Positions 1 through 49,247 of a DNA stretch of 64,000 nucleotides are shown one piece after another. The DNA lies in assembly GCF_057098645.1 (NCBI RefSeq), contig NZ_CM169472.1, one strand, 5' to 3'. The position numbers and the translations under genes were made by a program. Positions within the stretch are counted from its first letter, which is position 1; each line of letters starts with the position of its first letter. The notes beneath the pieces are model-generated. The model worked only from the letters and a program-made list of their open reading frames with translations. It did not search any database and was not told where the DNA came from.

Positions 1-131
1 AATAGCGATTTTTCCAACGACAAAAGCTAAATATCGCAAAAACCTCAGTAAAAATCTTGCTGGAGCTATTATTGCTAAGTAACATTTACCCCCTGAAGTT
101 AATGGATCAATCAACAGAGATGTGAGTTGTA

Positions 132-257
132 ATGAATCGTCTTATTGAATTAACAGGTTGGATCGTTCTTGTCGTTTCAGTCATTCTTCTTGGCGTGGCG
201 AGTCACATTGACAACTATCAGCCACCTGAACAGAGTACTACGGTACAACACAAGTAA
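132..257 (+). CDS. blr: Small membrane protein Blr, 41 aa (beta-lactam resistance / divisome-associated)
   Basis: Hand translation gives MNRLIELTGWIVLVVSVILLGVASHIDNYQPPEQSTTVQHK*, which I recognise as Blr; it lies just upstream of cnu as in K-12. Below the ORF-track size cutoff. Confidence 0.7.
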   Translation: MNRLIELTGWIVLVVSVILLGVASHIDNYQPPEQSTTVQHK

Positions 258-529
258 GCTCTGCACTTGTAGAGCGACATGCTGCCCGTCCGGGTGCATG
301 TTTTCACTTGTCGGATATTAAACCAGGAATTTATTATCTTGTTCGATGTTGTTGGTGATTGTCAGGGATAGTAAAGCGCGTTACTCTTTTCAGAGCAGTT
401 TTTCATCCCTGAATATTTGCCATCAGCGCATTCTTATTATTGTAATAACACAAGCGTTCACTTTTGGTGAAATTTTATCATCACTAATAATACCTACCCC
501 TTTGGTATTAATTATTTTATGGACCTTTT

Positions 530-745
530 ATGACTGTTCAGGACTACTTATTAAAATTTCGCAAAATCAATTCACTCGAAAGTCTGGAAAAACTCTACGA
601 CCATCTTAATTACACCCTGACGGACGATCAGGAACTGATAAATATGTATCGTGCTGCCGATCACCGTCGCGCAGAGCTGGTTTCTGGCGGGCGTTTGTTT
701 GACCTCGGCCAGGTACCGAAGTCCGTCTGGCACTATGTTCAATAA
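530..745 (+). CDS. cnu: Hha-family nucleoid-associated regulator Cnu (YdgT), 71 aa
   Basis: ORF-track protein [12 protein letters not shown]...VWHYVQ matches Cnu from memory; position upstream of ydgK-rsx. Confidence 0.9.
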
Positions 746-806
746 AGAAAGTAGCGATCGGTTATAAAAGCCTTATAATAACGCCCCTAAAATTAGATTT
801 GCCTGT

Positions 807-1271
807 TTGCGTCGCTATTCTGGAGAACCTATGACCACCACAACGCCACAACGTATTGGAGGCTGGTTGCTTGGCCCGTTGGCCTGGCTTTTAGTCGCTC
901 TGTTAAGTACGACGCTGGCGTTGTTGCTGTATACCGCTGCGTTATCTTCTCCGCAAACATTTCAAACGCTCGGCGCACAAGCACTGACGACACAAATCTT
1001 ATGGGGCGTTTCTTTTATTACCGCTATCGCCATGTGGTATTACACACTGTGGTTGACCATCGCTTTCTTTAAACGTCGGCGTTGTGTTCCTAAACACTAT
1101 ATTATCTGGCTGCTTATTTCCGTATTGCTGGCAGTAAAAGCGTTCGCTTTTTCCCCCGTGGAAGATGGCATAGCCGTTCGCCAGTTGCTGTTTACTTTGT
1201 TGGCAACCGCATTGATCGTCCCCTATTTCAAACGCTCGTCGCGGGTGAAAGCGACGTTTGTGAATCCGTAA
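807..1271 (+). CDS. ydgK: Inner membrane protein YdgK (DUF2569); annotated start probably at 831 (MTTTTPQ...)
   Basis: Hydrophobic ORF immediately upstream of rsxA; internal Met at 831 would give the 146-aa form. Confidence 0.8.
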   Translation: MRRYSGEPMTTTTPQRIGGWLLGPLAWLLVALLSTTLALLLYTAALSSPQTFQTLGAQALTTQILWGVSFITAIAMWYYTLWLTIAFFKRRRCVPKHYIIWLLISVLLAVKAFAFSPVEDGIAVRQLLFTLLATALIVPYFKRSSRVKATFVNP

Positions 1272-1347
1272 TAACCTTACAGTTAACCTGTTGTCGCCTG
1301 CTCTGGATTAACGGATAATAGGCGGCTTTTTTATTTCAGGCCGAAAA

Positions 1348-1928
1348 ATGACTGACTACCTGTTACTGTTTGTCGGAACTGTACTGGTCAATAACTTTGT
1401 ACTGGTCAAGTTTCTCGGTCTCTGTCCGTTTATGGGGGTTTCCAAAAAGCTGGAAACCGCGATGGGCATGGGGCTGGCAACAACGTTTGTGATGACGCTG
1501 GCGTCTATTTGCGCCTGGCTTATCGATACGTGGATTTTGATCCCACTTAATCTGATTTACCTGCGCACCCTGGCATTTATTCTGGTGATTGCTGTGGTCG
1601 TGCAGTTCACCGAGATGGTGGTGCGCAAAACCAGCCCGGTGCTTTACCGTTTGCTGGGGATTTTTTTGCCGCTTATCACCACCAACTGTGCCGTGCTCGG
1701 CGTGGCGTTGCTGAATATCAATCTCGGGCACAATTTCTTGCAGTCGGCGCTGTACGGTTTTTCCGCCGCTGTCGGTTTTTCGCTGGTGATGGTGCTCTTC
1801 GCAGCCATCCGCGAACGCCTTGCTGTGGCTGATGTCCCGGCTCCTTTTCGCGGTAATGCCATTGCGTTAATTACCGCAGGTCTTATGTCTCTGGCCTTTA
1901 TGGGCTTTAGTGGTTTGGTGAAGTTGTA

Positions 1929-1929
<1 letters not shown>
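1348..1929 (+). CDS. rsxA: Rnf/Rsx electron transport complex subunit A
   Basis: 193-aa polytopic membrane protein, first gene of the rsxABCDGE order. Confidence 0.92.
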
Positions 1930-4818
<2,889 letters not shown>

Positions 4819-39107: not shown

Positions 39108-40502
<1,395 letters not shown>

Positions 40503-40510
40503 TAAAGACA

Positions 40511-40545
40511 AGGCGCAACCTTCACGGGGTGCGCCTGTGTTTTTA
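40511..40545 (+). terminator. Rho-independent terminator after mdtK (overlaps the ydhQ stop)
   Basis: aggcgcaacc-ttcacgg-ggtgcgcct followed by GTGTTTTT. Confidence 0.5.
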
Positions 40546-41799
40546 CGCAGGCTGGAGCGTTGCGCCAATCCCGTCTTCGTCTGGCTGTAGTTTCAGTGCG
40601 TTACACAGAGTTTGCCGACTGGCATCTGTTATCTCAACGCGTATATCCCCGGTAACTTCCCCTTTCACATTGATGAAGTCAGGTGAAATTTCTTTCGCAC
40701 TGGTTTGCAGGCAAATCGCTCCCTCTCCGCGCAGGCGTTTCACTTTCAGTTGCACATGCGTTGCCGCACCAGTGATCAGCCACAGTTTTCCGCCATTCAG
40801 ATTGATGTTACCAACAATGAAAGTGACACTGTCACCTTTTACCGTACTGCCGTCGAGAATCAACACACCGCCCTGCTGTACAGTAATCGTTGATTGTTGC
40901 AGATCTGCGTCATAGCCAATAATCATTGAAGCGCCGTCCAGTAATGCAACACTCCCGGTCAGTTCAACCGGTGCGCGATCTTCCTCTACGACAAAATTTT
41001 CGTCCGCGCTGGTGGGTGACAACAGGATCACTGTTCCACCTTGTATTACCGCATTTTCCAGCGTACCGGCATGCACTTCAGCCCGACCACCCACATTCAC
41101 GGACAGGTTTTGCGTCTTACCGGAACTGTAGAGCTGAAGGCCATCCGTCCCCAGACGATAAATGGATCCATTCTCAACAATAGTGTCAGAGTCTTCACCA
41201 CCGAGATTATTCATGGTGCCACCAGCAAGCAACGTATCACTGGCTTTCCCGGCCAGCATAAAAACGCCGCCCTGATTAATCTCACAATTGCTGGCTTCCC
41301 CACCTGGATACACCAACAATTCACCACCTTCATCTACCACGACCGCTGAGGTTGTCCCATTAACCAACAGGCCGCCCTCTTGATCGAGAATGATTTTTTC
41401 CGCGCGATGTCCTTCCAGTACACGCAGGTTACCGCCATTTTCCAGCAACAAACCGCAGGCATAACCCTGATCAACGCTGAATTCACCTTCGGGATGGCGG
41501 CCATTAACCGTAGCGAGCGTAGAGAGACTAATTGCGCCTCCCTCGGACTGAACAATATCTGTGGCAATGGCACCGTCGCTGACCGATAGCGTGCCATTGT
41601 TACCGTACTGTGTGCATTTGGCGATCCCACCGGTTGCCACTTTCAACCAGCCAGCCCCCGTGACCACGGTATTTTCGGCTCTTCCGCCAGCTTCAACAAT
41701 CAACTCGCCTTCAGTAAGTTGCGTCGCGCCAATGACCTCGCCGATCTTAACAATTTGCACATTCCCGTCGCTCATCAAGTTTTTCGCATCAGACCCCAT
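40543..41799 (-). CDS. ydhQ: Autotransporter-passenger-like beta-helical protein YdhQ
   Basis: 418 aa, Gly/Asn/Thr-rich repetitive beta-strand composition; no obvious C-terminal beta-barrel. Confidence 0.85.
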   Translation of the reverse strand: MGSDAKNLMSDGNVQIVKIGEVIGATQLTEGELIVEAGGRAENTVVTGAGWLKVATGGIAKCTQYGNNGTLSVSDGAIATDIVQSEGGAISLSTLATVNGRHPEGEFSVDQGYACGLLLENGGNLRVLEGHRAEKIILDQEGGLLVNGTTSAVVVDEGGELLVYPGGEASNCEINQGGVFMLAGKASDTLLAGGTMNNLGGEDSDTIVENGSIYRLGTDGLQLYSSGKTQNLSVNVGGRAEVHAGTLENAVIQGGTVILLSPTSADENFVVEEDRAPVELTGSVALLDGASMIIGYDADLQQSTITVQQGGVLILDGSTVKGDSVTFIVGNINLNGGKLWLITGAATHVQLKVKRLRGEGAICLQTSAKEISPDFINVKGEVTGDIRVEITDASRQTLCNALKLQPDEDGIGATLQPA

Positions 41800-42106
41800 G
41801 ATTTATTCCTTTGCTGCATCTGTGTGCCTTTATTGCTACCTAAGTGTAAAGGCTACGGAGGATTTATCCACGACAGATTTGAGATGGTGGCAAACAACTC
41901 TGTTTAAACTCTGATACACGAATTATTGGGTTGTATCAGATGTAAATGCGATCCTGAATAAAAATCGCCCTTGCAAATCAACAAAATATAGCCAATTTGC
42001 TTAAAAGCTCTGCAAATGGTCGAAATAGCGCAGAAAATTACGTTTTGCCTCTTGCCACCTTCCCACTCTGCCGCTAATATTCGTCCCCGTTGTCACCTAC
42101 AACGTT

Positions 42107-42183
42107 GCGTTCATAGCTCAGTTGGTTAGAGCACCACCTTGACATGGTGGGGGTCGTTGGTTCGAGTCCAATTGAACGCACCA
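42107..42183 (+). tRNA. valV: tRNA-Val (anticodon GAC)
   Basis: 77-nt cloverleaf including CCA; anticodon loop cttGACat. Confidence 0.93.
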
Positions 42184-42187
42184 TCCT

Positions 42188-42264
42188 GCGTCCGTAGCTC
42201 AGTTGGTTAGAGCACCACCTTGACATGGTGGGGGTCGGTGGTTCGAGTCCACTCGGACGCACCA
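42188..42264 (+). tRNA. valW: tRNA-Val (anticodon GAC), second copy
   Basis: 77 nt, 4-nt spacer after valV; differs from valV by compensatory changes in acceptor and T stems. Confidence 0.93.
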
Positions 42265-42371
42265 GATTTTCTTAATCTGGTCTTCTACTTTTTCCCTCTG
42301 CTTCTTCTCTGTATCCAATACGTTAAAAGATTTACACTGTCTTCGTATGCGTTATCAGAAGGAGAATCGCT

Positions 42372-42677
42372 ATGGCAACTTTGTTACAACTTCATTTTTC
42401 TTTCAATGGCCCATTTGGCGACGCAATGGCTGAGCAGCTTAAACCGCTTGCTGAGTCGATTAATCAGGAACCTGGTTTTCTGTGGAAGGTATGGACCGAA
42501 AGTGAAAAGAACCACGAAGCCGGTGGGATCTACCTTTTCACTGATGAAAAAAGCGCCCTTGCCTATCTGGAAAAACACACTGCCCGACTGAAAAATCTCG
42601 GCGTTGAGGAAGTTATCGCCAAAGTTTTCGATGTCAATGAGCCACTGAGTCAAATCAATCAGGCAAAACTCGCCTGA
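42372..42677 (+). CDS. ydhR: Putative monooxygenase-like small protein YdhR
   Basis: 101-aa ORF following valVW; hairpin plus T-run after its stop (42684..42705). Confidence 0.85.
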
Positions 42678-42802
42678 CAGATTTTAATCAAGGGCGGTTA
42701 GCGCCCTTTTCATCCCTGTCTGAAATTTCTCAAATTCTAAAAATTTCAACCAAACTTATCTGATAACACTAAATTCGAAAGAATGCGTACAGGTAAGTAA
42801 CA

Positions 42803-44407
42803 ATGAAAAAAATTGCTATTGTGGGTGCCGGGCCTACGGGGATCTACACCTTATCCTCGCTTCTACAGCAACAAACTCCACTTTCTATTTCTATCTTCGA
42901 GCAGGCTGACGAGGCCGGTGTCGGGATGCCATACAGTGATGAGGAAAACTCAAAAATGATGCTGGCAAATATTGCCAGTATTGAAATACCGCCGATTTAT
43001 TGTACGTATCTCGAATGGCTACAAAAGCAAGAAGCCAGCCATCTCCAGCGTTATGGCGTTAAAAAAGAAACCTTGCACGATCGTCAGTTTTTACCGCGAA
43101 TTCTGCTGGGCGAATATTTCCGCGATCAATTTTTACGATTAGTAGACCAGGCACGAAAGCAAAAATTTGCAGTGGCTGTTTATGAATCATGCCAGGTTAC
43201 CGATCTGCAAATTACAAATGCTGGCGTCATGCTCGCTACAAATCAGGATTTACCCAGCGAGACGTTTGATTTAGCGGTGATTGCCACGGGTCACGTCTGG
43301 CCTGATGAAGAAGAAGCAATCCGAACGTATTTTCCCAGCCCGTGGTCAGGCCTGATGGAAGCAAAGGTCGATGCGTGTAACATGGGTATTATGGGAACAT
43401 CCTTGAGCGGACTGGATGCGGCAATGGCAGTGGCAATTCAGCATGGTTCGTTCATTGAAGATGATAAACAACACGTCGTTTTTCACCGCGATAACGCAAG
43501 TGAAAAGCTAAATATTACGTTAATGTCGCGCACGGGTATTTTACCCGAAGCCGATTTCTATTGCCCTATTCCCTACGAGCCCTTACACATCGTCACTGAT
43601 CAGGCATTAAATGCTGAGATTCAAAAAGGCGAATATGGCCTTTTGGATCGGGTATTTAGATTGATAGTAGAGGAAATCAAGTTTGCTGATCCAGACTGGA
43701 GCCAACGCATAGCCTTAGAGAGCCTGAATGTCGATTCCTTTGCTCAAGCCTGGTTTGCCGAGCGCAAACAACGCGACCCATTTGACTGGGCAGAAAAAAA
43801 TCTCCAGGAAGTCGAACGCAATAAACGAGAAAAACATACTGTTCCCTGGCGTTATGTCATTCTGCGCCTGCATGAAGCAGTACAGGAAATTGTTCCACAT
43901 CTGAATGAACACGACCATAAACGGTTCAGTAAAGGCCTTGCCCGGGTTTTCATCGATAATTATGCCGCAATCCCTTCAGAGTCTATTCGTCGGCTGCTGG
44001 CCTTACGTGAAGCGGGAATCATTCATATTCTCGCTCTCAGTGAAGACTACAAAATGGAAATTAACGAGTCGCGCACCGTCCTGAAAACGGAAGACAACAG
44101 CTACTCGTTTGACGTTTTTATTGATGCCCGCGGGCAGCGTCCGCTTAAAGTGAAAGATATTCCTTTCCCTGGACTACGCGAACAATTACAGAAAACAGGG
44201 GATGAAATCCCTGATGTTGGTGAAGATTATACGTTACAGCAACCCGAAGATATTCGTGGGCGCGTAGCGTTCGGCGCGTTGCCCTGGTTAATGCACGACC
44301 AGCCTTTCGTTCAGGGACTTACGGCATGTGCAGAAATTGGTGAGGCGATGGCTCGGGCGGTCGTAAAACCTGCATCCCTTGCTCGTCGGCGTCTTTCGTT
44401 TGATTAA
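42803..44407 (+). CDS. ydhS: FAD/NAD(P)-binding protein YdhS
   Basis: N-terminal Rossmann motif IAIVGAGPTG; 534 aa. Confidence 0.85.
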   Translation: MKKIAIVGAGPTGIYTLSSLLQQQTPLSISIFEQADEAGVGMPYSDEENSKMMLANIASIEIPPIYCTYLEWLQKQEASHLQRYGVKKETLHDRQFLPRILLGEYFRDQFLRLVDQARKQKFAVAVYESCQVTDLQITNAGVMLATNQDLPSETFDLAVIATGHVWPDEEEAIRTYFPSPWSGLMEAKVDACNMGIMGTSLSGLDAAMAVAIQHGSFIEDDKQHVVFHRDNASEKLNITLMSRTGILPEADFYCPIPYEPLHIVTDQALNAEIQKGEYGLLDRVFRLIVEEIKFADPDWSQRIALESLNVDSFAQAWFAERKQRDPFDWAEKNLQEVERNKREKHTVPWRYVILRLHEAVQEIVPHLNEHDHKRFSKGLARVFIDNYAAIPSESIRRLLALREAGIIHILALSEDYKMEINESRTVLKTEDNSYSFDVFIDARGQRPLKVKDIPFPGLREQLQKTGDEIPDVGEDYTLQQPEDIRGRVAFGALPWLMHDQPFVQGLTACAEIGEAMARAVVKPASLARRRLSFD

Positions 44408-44418
44408 AGGTAAAGCTA

Positions 44419-45231
44419 TCAGCACTCAACAAACTGATGCTGTTCATTAAGACGATAGCGGACTCCGGCTCGAATATTGTTTTCACCTTCAATGGCGACG
44501 GCGAAACGAACTCTTTCGCCGTCATGATATGCCAGTGCGGCGCTTCCTCCTGGCCCGAGAATAATTGAGTCGACCACGCCCGTGCTCACTACCGTTGAAT
44601 TTTCACCGCTGGCAATGATGTGTACATTGTCGCCGCTGTTGGCAATTCTGGCGTTTGCGCCAAAGCTGGCGATTTGCACCAGGTCACCATTACTAGCGAC
44701 ATGACATCGTTCACCCAATGTACAAACGCGTACTCGCATTCCGGTATTCGCAATCCGACTGCTATCTCCAGCGCTGCTTATCCGCGAAGAATTGCCGGTT
44801 ACAGCAACCCGTGCGCGCTCACCGGAGCTGCCAATGTGACTGTTAAAGCCGACACTTCCAATCCGCACGCTATAACCCATACTGGCAATTTGTGCAGCAT
44901 ACCCAGCGGTTGCGATTCTGGCGTTATCCTCACAACAGCCGATGCGAGCATGATCGTCGCTGCGGGCAAACTGACTGCAAAATGGTATCTCTCCGGGGTC
45001 TGTGGCCAGTTTTTGCATAGAGGAAACTTCCTGATGCGCGAAGTTTTCATCCGCCAGCCATTTTTTCCACGCATACTCAACCAGACTCTCCGCCCAGTCC
45101 GTATATCCTTCCTCAATCAGTGCATGATGAATATCGGCATAACTACCGCCGCGTGGGAAATGGCGCAGGAACCAGCGATACATCACCGCTCCGATACGCC
45201 ATTCTCGCAGGTCTGCTCGTGTAATGATCAT
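44419..45231 (-). CDS. ydhT: YdhT, uncharacterised protein with a 9-residue periodic repeat
   Basis: 270 aa; about 15 consecutive xxRIxxxGx nonamer units; first gene read into the ydhUXWV block. Confidence 0.82.
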   Translation of the reverse strand: MIITRADLREWRIGAVMYRWFLRHFPRGGSYADIHHALIEEGYTDWAESLVEYAWKKWLADENFAHQEVSSMQKLATDPGEIPFCSQFARSDDHARIGCCEDNARIATAGYAAQIASMGYSVRIGSVGFNSHIGSSGERARVAVTGNSSRISSAGDSSRIANTGMRVRVCTLGERCHVASNGDLVQIASFGANARIANSGDNVHIIASGENSTVVSTGVVDSIILGPGGSAALAYHDGERVRFAVAIEGENNIRAGVRYRLNEQHQFVEC

Positions 45232-45234
45232 TCG

Positions 45235-46020
45235 TTAGTGCCGGTGATAGCCATCGACCATGCTTTTAAAGGTTTCGTGTGGCGTACGCCCCGTGGTGCA
45301 AAGATAAAGATGACCGAAGATAAAAAAGAGGCTTATAAATGCCAGAGCAAAATGCGCCTGCAATAACCAGTATCTTACGCCAGGAAACACATCTCCCACG
45401 GCTTGCGGATAGAGACACAGCAGCCCCGTCAATAGTAACAACGGCAGCAATCCATACATGACACCAACATAGGCAACCTGCTGTAAGGGATTAAATTTAG
45501 ACTGGGTTGTTGCCGGGAAAGGATGTTCTTCCCCCTGCATAATGCCAAACAAATAAAATCGCGTTTGTTTTGCCGCCCGCTCCAGCCAACCCTGACGACG
45601 AATGCGATAGTGGTGGCCATTACCCCCAACGGCATTGATCAGAACAAAGCCAAGCCAGCATGCCAGTAACAAAAATCCGCAAACTTCATGCACCGCAACC
45701 AGACTTTTAACCGCAGTTGCGCCCACCAGCGCAAAGTGATTTATCAGCCCACTTGCCAGCAACAATACAAAGAGTAACGCATTCGACCAGTGCCATAATC
45801 TGACCGCTTTGCTGTAAAGATAAATCCTCTCACCATGATCGGTGGCTGATTTCTTCACGCCACGAGCACGAAGCAAGGCGTGCTGCCCCAGCACCAACCA
45901 CATCCCAACCAGCAATACTCCGGCAATGATCAACCACACCGGCCAAAATTCGGGAGTGAACTGTGGCACATAGTTCGCTAACTGGCTCTGAAACTGTTCA
46001 GCATGTTGCGACGGGTTCAT
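45235..46020 (-). CDS. ydhU: Membrane cytochrome b-type subunit YdhU (PhsC/FdnI-like)
   Basis: 261 aa, polytopic with conserved His; overlaps ydhX by 4 nt. Confidence 0.85.
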   Translation of the reverse strand: MNPSQHAEQFQSQLANYVPQFTPEFWPVWLIIAGVLLVGMWLVLGQHALLRARGVKKSATDHGERIYLYSKAVRLWHWSNALLFVLLLASGLINHFALVGATAVKSLVAVHEVCGFLLLACWLGFVLINAVGGNGHHYRIRRQGWLERAAKQTRFYLFGIMQGEEHPFPATTQSKFNPLQQVAYVGVMYGLLPLLLLTGLLCLYPQAVGDVFPGVRYWLLQAHFALAFISLFFIFGHLYLCTTGRTPHETFKSMVDGYHRH

Positions 46021-46685
46021 ACATTTTCCTTTTTAATCAAATGTTGACCGAACCGGCGATACAGATGCGGTTTCCCGGCACCAGGTAGCTGATATTGATA
46101 GTATTTATTATCCTGCAACCACGCCTGAATTTCTGGGCTATCTTCGCGACCAAAGATCAATGCGTGTTCCGGGCAGGCGCTGACGCAAATGGGCGGAAAG
46201 CCTTTTGCCAGTCGGGACTCAGCGCAGAAATCACATTTATCTGCCACTTTAGTGACAGGGTTAAGGTAGCGAACCTGGTACGGACAAGCGCCAATGCAAT
46301 AACTGCAGCCGATGTACTGCGATTTTTCTACCCGCACGATCCCCTGCTCATCACGCCACGACGCCCCTGTCGGGCATACGTCGATGCACGGAGCATCTTC
46401 GCAGTGCTGACATGACTGGCGAAAAAAGTGATACTGCGTTTCGTTGTCGTTATCGGTGACTGGAATGTGTGCTATCGATAAACGGCTTCCCTGAGCGGGG
46501 ACGTGATTGGTTTTACGGCATGCGCGGGCGCAAATATTACAGCCATTGCACCGTGACTCGTCATGAATCATGGCATACCGAACTTCCTTTTCTTGCCTCG
46601 TGTTCGCTAACAGAGAAGACGCAGAACCAGTAAAAAAGATTACTGTTCCCATCCCCAGAACAAATTTGCGTCGAGTGAAGGACAT
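46017..46685 (-). CDS. ydhX: 4Fe-4S ferredoxin-like protein YdhX with Tat signal
   Basis: Start at MSFTRRKFVLG (twin-arginine motif); several CxxCxxCxxxCP clusters. Confidence 0.85.
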   Translation of the reverse strand: MSFTRRKFVLGMGTVIFFTGSASSLLANTRQEKEVRYAMIHDESRCNGCNICARACRKTNHVPAQGSRLSIAHIPVTDNDNETQYHFFRQSCQHCEDAPCIDVCPTGASWRDEQGIVRVEKSQYIGCSYCIGACPYQVRYLNPVTKVADKCDFCAESRLAKGFPPICVSACPEHALIFGREDSPEIQAWLQDNKYYQYQLPGAGKPHLYRRFGQHLIKKENV

Positions 46686-46748
46686 CTGATTATCCCCTAA
46701 TGCAGTGGCTGCAACTGTCCACCCTATCCATGACATCTCCCTGAAATT

Positions 46749-47396
46749 TCAGGGGTTCTGAAACTGCTCTACCTCGAACCATTCGCATAAGCCATAAGCC
46801 TTGCCATAGGTCATAAATCGCTCGCTAAACAAGTACAACACCGCCGTCGATGACTCCACCTGCCGTATATCGGCATATTCAGGTGCAACATCCATCGCGG
46901 CGATCGCGGCTTCAATCTGCGCTTCCTGGAAGTAATATGGCGCTTGCATCAGCATGGCGACTTTGTAAGGACGAGGATACGTCTGGCACTCAAAACGAAC
47001 GGCGTGTGCAATGGCGCGACAAATGTCCTGCTCCACAACTTGCAAAGACATCGCCGCGTAGTTTTCACTCATGGCCTGCGTTGAGTAATAGTAATCATCC
47101 TGGCTTCCCGTCATACACGCGATATCCGCGTAGTCTCCGTTCTGCTTGATGTTTTCCAGCAAAACTGACAGTTCCTCTTCTGCAACCGAATAGGGTGGCG
47201 AGAGAAACACGGTGCGCGCCACCAGCTGCCCAGCCGCAGAATGCTGGCGAATGAACTCTGCCAGGATTTCAGCCGGTTCTGGTTCCGTTACCGTATCAAC
47301 GGGGTGACGCATCCCCTGCAACCATTGCCGCTTCGCCTCGTCAACTTCGCTGACTTTCGCTAACGGCAATTCATCCCGATGGTTCATCTTACCCAT
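46749..47396 (-). CDS. ydhW: Uncharacterised protein YdhW
   Basis: 215-aa ORF in conserved position between ydhX and ydhV. Confidence 0.8.
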   Translation of the reverse strand: MGKMNHRDELPLAKVSEVDEAKRQWLQGMRHPVDTVTEPEPAEILAEFIRQHSAAGQLVARTVFLSPPYSVAEEELSVLLENIKQNGDYADIACMTGSQDDYYYSTQAMSENYAAMSLQVVEQDICRAIAHAVRFECQTYPRPYKVAMLMQAPYYFQEAQIEAAIAAMDVAPEYADIRQVESSTAVLYLFSERFMTYGKAYGLCEWFEVEQFQNP

Positions 47397-47399
47397 TCC

Positions 47400-49247
<1,848 letters not shown>

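Follow-up and report, generated by a model that had tools for sequence, protein, structure and literature searches.

The gene ydhQ lies at positions 40543–41799 on the minus strand of a 64,000-nucleotide stretch of Escherichia coli DNA (NCBI RefSeq assembly GCF_057098645.1, contig NZ_CM169472.1; the whole stretch is called the window below). Its product, YdhQ, is probably the passenger β-helix of an autotransporter that has been retained as a cytoplasmic protein under purifying selection. It is not an autotransporter itself, because neither of the two defining features, a signal peptide and a translocating β-barrel, was found in it. Since it is conserved across Escherichia yet lacks both of these parts, YdhQ probably works inside the cell. 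Its architecture, fold, restricted distribution and selection are established. A cytoplasmic location is the best-supported one, on the strength of published work (PMC13101318, PMC2672614, PMC11066096) and of a hint from the cysteine content. The gene and its odd targeting are already present in databases and in the literature.

Identity and Domain Content of YdhQ

The open reading frame runs from an ATG start to a TAA stop, encodes 418 residues and is intact; it is the known E. coli gene ydhQ. RefSeq labels it “ydhQ: AIDA repeat-containing protein”, and the NCBIfam model NF007409 (PRK09945, the YdhQ equivalog) spans residues 1–418 of 418 with 937.6 bits against a cutoff of 830. A 2-kb stretch centered on the gene is 100% identical to E. 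coli strain 95-3192 and 98.7% identical to K-12 MG1655. The main parts of the gene are as follows.

40543–41799, minus strand: ydhQ coding sequence, 418 aa plus TAA; AIDA/Ag43-type β-helix with no leader and no barrel
41350–41574, minus strand: AIDA repeat unit with a β-hairpin (VNGRHPEGEFSV ... LLLENGGNLRVLEGHRAEK), codons 76–150; the most constrained part
40591–40815, minus strand: partial Pertactin/autochaperone-type module, codons 329–403; first two thirds only

YdhQ is a 43-kDa, acidic (pI 4.4), single-domain protein. The Pfam AIDA profile (PF16168) matches it in four stretches (E 6e-29), and the strand-loop-strand repeats of TIGR04415 are also matched. These repeats are visible at the profile level only: no direct or tandem DNA repeats were found within ydhQ, and recent DNA repeats inside the gene were thus rejected. 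The Pertactin profile (PF03212) matches residues 329–403 at profile positions 1–78 of 121 only (E 2.2e-6), and a complete autochaperone/Pertactin module, such as those of the proteins P0026 and YejO, was not found. The initial annotation had described a passenger-like β-helix rich in Gly, Asn, Thr and Val. The passenger-like character is borne out by the four AIDA stretches and the partial Pertactin match, as well as by the structural model described below. With regard to composition (G 15.1%, L 10.5%, V 9.1%, A 8.1%, T 7.7%, N 5.5%), the enrichment holds for Gly, Val and Thr, while Asn is only moderately raised.

Every part needed for export is missing. The autotransporter β-barrel (PF03797), AC_1 (PF18883) and ESPR gave no Pfam match in YdhQ even at E ≤ 1, and a tblastn search with the linker-plus-barrel segments of four real autotransporters detected no barrel anywhere in the window. 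The same annotation had seen no translocator domain, as these searches agree, and had allowed that a complete conventional autotransporter might come to light; the hidden Markov model (HMM) search shows no barrel. An α-helical linker followed by a 12-stranded barrel is likewise absent, the AlphaFold model containing neither a barrel nor any helix of at least 4 residues. The C-terminus reads ...TLQPA and has no terminal aromatic residue. At the other end, the first 12 residues carry a net charge of −1 and no hydrophobic core, and the top 11-residue hydropathy in the N-terminal region is 1.35. The features of a Sec-dependent signal peptide, judged by charge and hydropathy, were therefore not found at the N-terminus, and SignalP 6.0 is reported to be negative for YdhQ (PMC13101318). 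No membrane-spanning hydrophobic segment is present. Being without a signal peptide, a full autochaperone, a linker and a barrel, YdhQ therefore cannot undergo type Va self-secretion.

A longer ydhQ that hides a signal peptide or a barrel was considered and rejected. An in-frame TAA at 41803–41805, two codons 5′ of the ATG, makes a longer N-terminus impossible; downstream, the ydhQ stop is just 40 nt away from that of the convergent mdtK, and the window contains no barrel similarity. A two-partner secretion exoprotein (type Vb, TpsA) was also rejected, since there is no signal peptide, no TPS domain by Pfam or NCBIfam and no adjacent TpsB gene, the neighbors being mdtK and tRNA-Val. No heptosyltransferase gene, such as one for an Aah/TibC-type enzyme, lies beside ydhQ. 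A role in anti-phage defense was dismissed in the absence of any PADLOC match; the PHROG matches of YdhQ are to families of unknown function.

The cysteine content also sets YdhQ apart from exported relatives. YdhQ orthologues contain 3–6 cysteines, two of which are nearly invariant, compared with a single cysteine in the 771 residues of YejO and in the 1534 residues of P0026. These cysteines fit a release from the anti-cysteine constraint on passengers that cross the outer membrane, although this is suggestive only.

Predicted Structure

AlphaFold predicts a confident β-helix for YdhQ (pLDDT 92.3, pTM 0.88), and the protein is accordingly modeled as a right-handed β-helix built of AIDA-type strand-loop-strand repeats. 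Comparison of the model with known structures gave the following scores.

Ag43 (7koh): 27.1
TibA (4q1q): 25.1
Ag43b (7kob): 23.6
Vag8 (7akv), next best: 16.9

Below Vag8, the matches are generic β-helices, e.g., tailspikes and lyases. Foldseek gave the same top structural matches. In the PDB, the best Ag43 stretch aligns YdhQ residues 26–142 with Ag43 residues 201–317.

Relation to Known Autotransporters

Ag43 (Flu), AIDA-I and TibA, all self-associating type Va autotransporters, share the repeat family with YdhQ (Pfam AIDA, TIGR04415), and phmmer finds their solved passengers with E values of 2e-25 to 3.4e-13. However, the match to the Ag43 model is confined to its middle part (positions 249–468 of 948). 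Unlike these three proteins, YdhQ has no extended signal peptide, complete autochaperone, linker or barrel; it contains several cysteines, and it was cytosolic in the sole available localization experiment.

The sole relative that aligns end to end is E. coli YejO (P0097), which is encoded between narP and yejM and annotated as “autotransporter YejO” in E. coli genomes. Residues 2–392 of YdhQ are collinear with residues 72–486 of YejO at 28% identity, from the AIDA repeats into the Pertactin module. YejO continues through a complete Pertactin module (414–538) and then a barrel from residue 585, neither of which YdhQ has. Thus, YdhQ starts near YejO residue 72 and stops near the equivalent of residue 486, lacking about 70 N-terminal residues (the signal peptide and first rungs) and, at the other end, everything from the final third of the autochaperone module through the linker to the barrel. 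A related N-terminal fragment, P0117, which is taken from its sequence overlap to be the N-terminus of YejO, carries a signal peptide. The collinear alignment thus marks YdhQ as a segment from the interior of a passenger. Its ancestor was an autotransporter of the self-associating type, in the lineage of Ag43, AIDA-I, TibA and YejO; the segment retained begins just past where the signal peptide and first rungs would be and breaks off inside the Pertactin/autochaperone module, of which about two thirds are kept.

Other short, barrel-less proteins with AIDA repeats were examined as possible counterparts of YdhQ in other genera, but P0065, P0117, P0121, P0124 and P0136 proved to be fragments of ordinary autotransporters, some of them frameshifted. 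The frameshifted E. coli fragments P0065 and P0121 resemble YdhQ in having AIDA repeats, a truncated Pertactin module and no barrel; in contrast to YdhQ, they have out-of-frame ends and are singletons, and P0121 keeps its signal peptide. YdhQ differs from such pseudogene fragments in its fixed length, its conserved start and end and a dN/dS of about 0.1 across the genus.

Distribution and Selection

Of 5426 complete E. coli genomes, 5422 carry the ydhQ locus, and the coding sequence is annotated as intact in 29 of 30 sampled E. coli records. In an exhaustive HMMER search of 1.84 billion representatives, YdhQ forms one 50%-identity cluster; the other full-length matches are large AIDA-repeat proteins with at most 38% identity. 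A genome scan for ydhQ found it in Escherichia only. Intact orthologues of 418–419 residues were found in E. albertii, E. marmotae, E. ruysiae and E. whittamii, as well as in several unnamed Escherichia lineages. Wherever flanks of an orthologue are available, ydhQ is located between mdtK and tRNA-Val/ydhR.

The 12 further Escherichia orthologues whose DNA was read are all intact, and the length of 418–419 residues and the start are invariant features of all 13 sequences when the window is included. In the orthologue alignment, the protein is conserved at its beginning (MGSDAKNL...) as well as at its end. Nei–Gojobori estimates over 21 pairs gave dN/dS values of 0.05–0.14 for ydhQ (dS 0.41–3.7); for mdtK, used as a control over 15 pairs, the values were 0.011–0.025 (dS 0.11–0.90). 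Every 30-codon window of ydhQ has a pN/pS of 0.04–0.31. Codons 76–150 form a block that is near-invariant among orthologues, with pN/pS values of 0.04–0.09 versus 0.14–0.31 elsewhere. The low dN/dS, the constraint over the whole reading frame and the conserved ends therefore rule out a currently decaying remnant. A pseudogene, which the initial annotation had raised as a possibility, was accordingly rejected: the 12 of 12 intact orthologues, the dN/dS range and the near-universal presence of the locus in E. coli all speak against degradation. Indeed, YdhQ offers a clean case of a passenger fragment under purifying selection after the loss of all export parts.

Two minor observations concern variants of the gene. 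Rare, shorter E. coli alleles (P0003, P0007, P0008, P0010, P0012, P0013 and P0015) encode 370–402 residues and span the whole query at 79–94% identity; their sequences suggest in-frame loss of β-helix rungs in single isolates. The most divergent intact orthologue, in positions 1–1636 of L005 (Logan SRR31578456), encodes 419 residues and is 71% identical in protein and 70% in nucleotide sequence; the valV promoter lies upstream of it, and the 57 nt past its terminator are unlike the mdtK 3′ end.

Cellular Location and Possible Function

Published experiments place YdhQ in the cytoplasm. Without an added signal peptide, a YdhQ-pFAST fusion was fluorescent and cytosolic and a YdhQ-agarase fusion gave no external activity (PMC13101318); the authors of that study term the protein a “leaderless autotransporter”, and the missing barrel is undiscussed there. 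YdhQ was co-purified with EF-Tu, and in an interaction network it falls into one cluster with tufA and tufB (PMC2672614). A UV-crosslinking screen for RNA-binding proteins also recovered it, as one of 17 unannotated proteins, and there it showed a significant growth-phase change, class Q3 (PMC11066096). By proteomics, the protein has been detected with a 5.5-fold rise upon vanillin treatment (PMC6561319). As for its history, ydhQ occupies a single-gene, Escherichia-specific segment of about 1.5 kb between mdtK and valVW, complete with a bidirectional terminator and a 5′ region of its own, and since its arrival it has been inherited vertically under purifying selection over the whole reading frame. 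The protein probably folds and stays in the cytoplasm, where it would offer the surface of its β-helix as a binding scaffold; the most constrained surface is the AIDA repeat and hairpin of residues 76–150.

Several observations weigh against this picture. An exogenous signal peptide on a YdhQ fusion raised reporter “display” (PMC13101318), and display by a signal-peptide–YdhQ fusion would be unexpected for a barrel-less protein. One paper states that early adhesion requires ydhQ (PMC9110714, citing Roux et al. 2005), and YdhQ appears among the COG3468 (adhesin AidA) proteins of a comparative vesicle-proteome survey (PMC10458587). Both the EF-Tu co-purification and the recovery in the RNA screen are prone to abundant-protein artefacts. 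Moreover, a ydhQ deletion strain serves as a routine neutral control (PMC6962156; bioRxiv 10.1101/2023.03.28.534373), which argues against a strong laboratory phenotype of ydhQ. Apart from these points, positively selected sites in ydhQ have been reported within E. coli (PMC9110714). A 2022 phylogenetic review of autotransporters covers ycgV, ypjA and yfaL and leaves ydhQ unmentioned.

If the adhesion statement, the vesicle listing and the reporter display were taken at face value, together with the homology to the adhesive passengers of Ag43 and TibA, YdhQ could be a genuine surface adhesin that acts in early adhesion and biofilm formation after leaving the cell by an unconventional route. 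We regard this reading, the main rival, as unlikely, and export by leaderless secretion, vesicle release, the barrel of another autotransporter or Bam/Tam acting in trans is doubtful to the same degree. The protein has no signal peptide, barrel or TPS domain; its fusion stayed cytosolic, and the agarase inactive outside, unless a signal peptide was supplied (PMC13101318); it co-purifies with the cytoplasmic EF-Tu; and 3–6 cysteines are unusual for translocated proteobacterial passengers. The display assays relied on a membrane-permeant fluorogen and on plate halos, which in our reading fail to separate periplasmic or leaked protein from surface-anchored protein. A different view would take ydhQ as a non-functional leftover of a larger autotransporter gene, expressed junk awaiting decay. 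By homology it is an internal passenger fragment, papers with the deletion strain as a control report no knockout phenotype, and the tRNA-flanked, variable locus is a typical site of gene debris; however, the selection data already largely refute this view, which is now very improbable. The dN/dS stays at 0.05–0.14 with synonymous sites near saturation, constraint covers the entire reading frame including the C-terminal part, length and start are fixed in 13 of 13 Escherichia sequences, the locus is kept in 5422 of 5426 genomes with a conserved 5′ region and ribosome-binding site, and the protein is detected by proteomics.

The question then is what a cytoplasmic YdhQ might do. It could be an intracellular scaffold tied to translation or RNA, contacting EF-Tu, tRNA or other RNA, in which case the adjacency of valVW would be no coincidence. 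This would account for the EF-Tu co-purification and the tufA/tufB cluster, for the recovery and class Q3 change in the RNA screen and for the divergent arrangement of ydhQ and valVW. We nevertheless hold it to be quite unlikely: a pI of 4.4 makes direct binding of RNA by YdhQ unlikely, Pfam and NCBIfam showed no RNA-binding domain in it, EF-Tu is a frequent pull-down contaminant, and the tRNA adjacency is more simply explained by an insertion hotspot. The fuller version, in which an adhesin fragment was captured in the ancestor of Escherichia and kept for tens of millions of years in a translation- or RNA-associated cytoplasmic role, is a long shot as well; if true, the autotransporter β-helix fold would thereby gain its first intracellular function.

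For the retained cytoplasmic passenger that we favor, some consequences follow. YdhQ is a core E. coli protein that is labeled “autotransporter” or “adhesin” in papers and surface-display toolkits, and it lacks both features that define an autotransporter. It should not be counted as a surface protein in adhesin inventories or in interpretations of positive selection or biofilm formation, and the reported “surface display” by signal-peptide–YdhQ needs a mechanistic explanation or a re-test. The cytoplasmic job of a soluble, Ag43-like β-helix thereby becomes a tractable question.

The Escherichia-Specific Segment

Alignments with outgroups delimit a segment in which ydhQ is the sole gene, accompanied by a terminator and about 180 nt of 5′ region. 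The segment, its parts and the flanking genes are listed below.

40503–41980, no strand assigned: Escherichia-specific segment of about 1.48 kb, from the mdtK stop to the valVW promoter, from outgroup alignments
40503–40548, no strand assigned: bidirectional terminator hairpin common to the convergent mdtK and ydhQ, from a terminator scan and RNA folding
41800–41980, minus strand: Escherichia-specific 5′ region of ydhQ, with ribosome-binding site, upstream in-frame stop and presumed promoter
39129–40502, plus strand: mdtK, convergent with ydhQ
42107–42264, plus strand: valV and valW, two copies of tRNA-Val with anticodon GAC, divergent from ydhQ, found by ARAGORN and the Rfam tRNA model

Homology to the outgroups breaks off with the stop codon of mdtK; it picks up again near 41985, where the valV promoter lies. 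The spacer from the mdtK stop to tRNA-Val differs in length accordingly.

Salmonella: 151 nt
Enterobacter: 153 nt
Pseudenterobacter: 410 nt
E. coli (the window): 1604 nt

No similarity to YdhQ was found at the corresponding loci of Salmonella, Enterobacter and Pseudenterobacter. An integrase-type island was rejected, as no direct repeats flank the segment and as its position is on the promoter side, rather than at the 3′ end, of the tRNA genes. A foreign base composition was rejected as well, the GC content of the ydhQ segment (50–53%) being similar to that of its neighbors. In Salmonella, SPI-2 was originally delimited at ydhE (= mdtK) to pykF (bioRxiv 10.1101/188599, citing Hensel 1997), and SPI-2 type III secretion genes are seen past the tRNAs in the Salmonella locus. 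A small genus-specific insertion is dated at the valV locus, where Salmonella gained SPI-2. Taken together with the absent signal peptide, the origin as an internal passenger segment and the published reports on the gene and its targeting, this insertion goes beyond what the initial annotation had described.

At the 3′ end of ydhQ, the terminator stem is formed by pairing of 40511–40517 with 40530–40536 and is followed by GTGTTTTTA. The ydhQ TAA, the complement of 40543–40545, lies within the T-tract, where the initial annotation had correctly placed it. The hairpin folds on both strands, with energies of −21.9 and −20.2 kcal/mol (z −3.3 and −2.3), and therefore looks like a shared bidirectional terminator. 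It is kept in E. albertii and E. marmotae, and paired changes retain the stem in the E. albertii version. The hairpin sequence after mdtK is different in Salmonella, Enterobacter and Pseudenterobacter (L014, L015 and L016). Therefore, the terminator is part of the genus-specific segment, and mdtK exchanged its ancestral terminator for this one when ydhQ arrived. The idea that the ancestral terminator supplied the ydhQ stop at an insertion junction is unsupported, since the Escherichia hairpin is unlike the outgroup hairpins.

At the 5′ end, a Shine–Dalgarno sequence, AAGGA, occupies 41807–41811, and E. coli, E. albertii and E. marmotae share the same 30 nt directly upstream of the ATG. A search of the minus strand turned up no consensus sigma-70 promoter in the 5′ region, and an Rfam scan of this region gave no credible structured RNA. 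Genomic SELEX has located an FlhDC binding site in the ydhQ–valV spacer (41800–42106; PMC9962212), and ydhQ has been computationally predicted as a CsrA target from GGA motifs in its 5′ untranslated region (PMC5389547).

Neighboring Features

The side of the locus past valVW (42300–48000; compared in L001, L003, L014 and L015) is variable, whereas the ydhQ side is constant within Escherichia. Beyond valVW, E. albertii lacks ydhS, E. marmotae has ydhS followed by pykF without the ydhT–ydhY operon, and Enterobacter has HSP20, GlgS and type VI secretion-related genes. In the window, Rfam RF02194 (“HPnc0260 bacterial antisense RNA”) has a full-length match at 42226–42388 on the minus strand, with 108.7 bits (gathering score 59). 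The matched stretch overlaps with the 3′ end of valW, the valW terminator and the start of ydhR, and the match may be driven by tRNA-containing sequence. Further along, the YdhT reading frame (44419–45231, minus strand, 270 aa) contains a run of short Ser/Gly-rich repeats, e.g., ...SSRISSAGDSSRIANTG..., which from their sequence suggest a repetitive, β-solenoid-like region.

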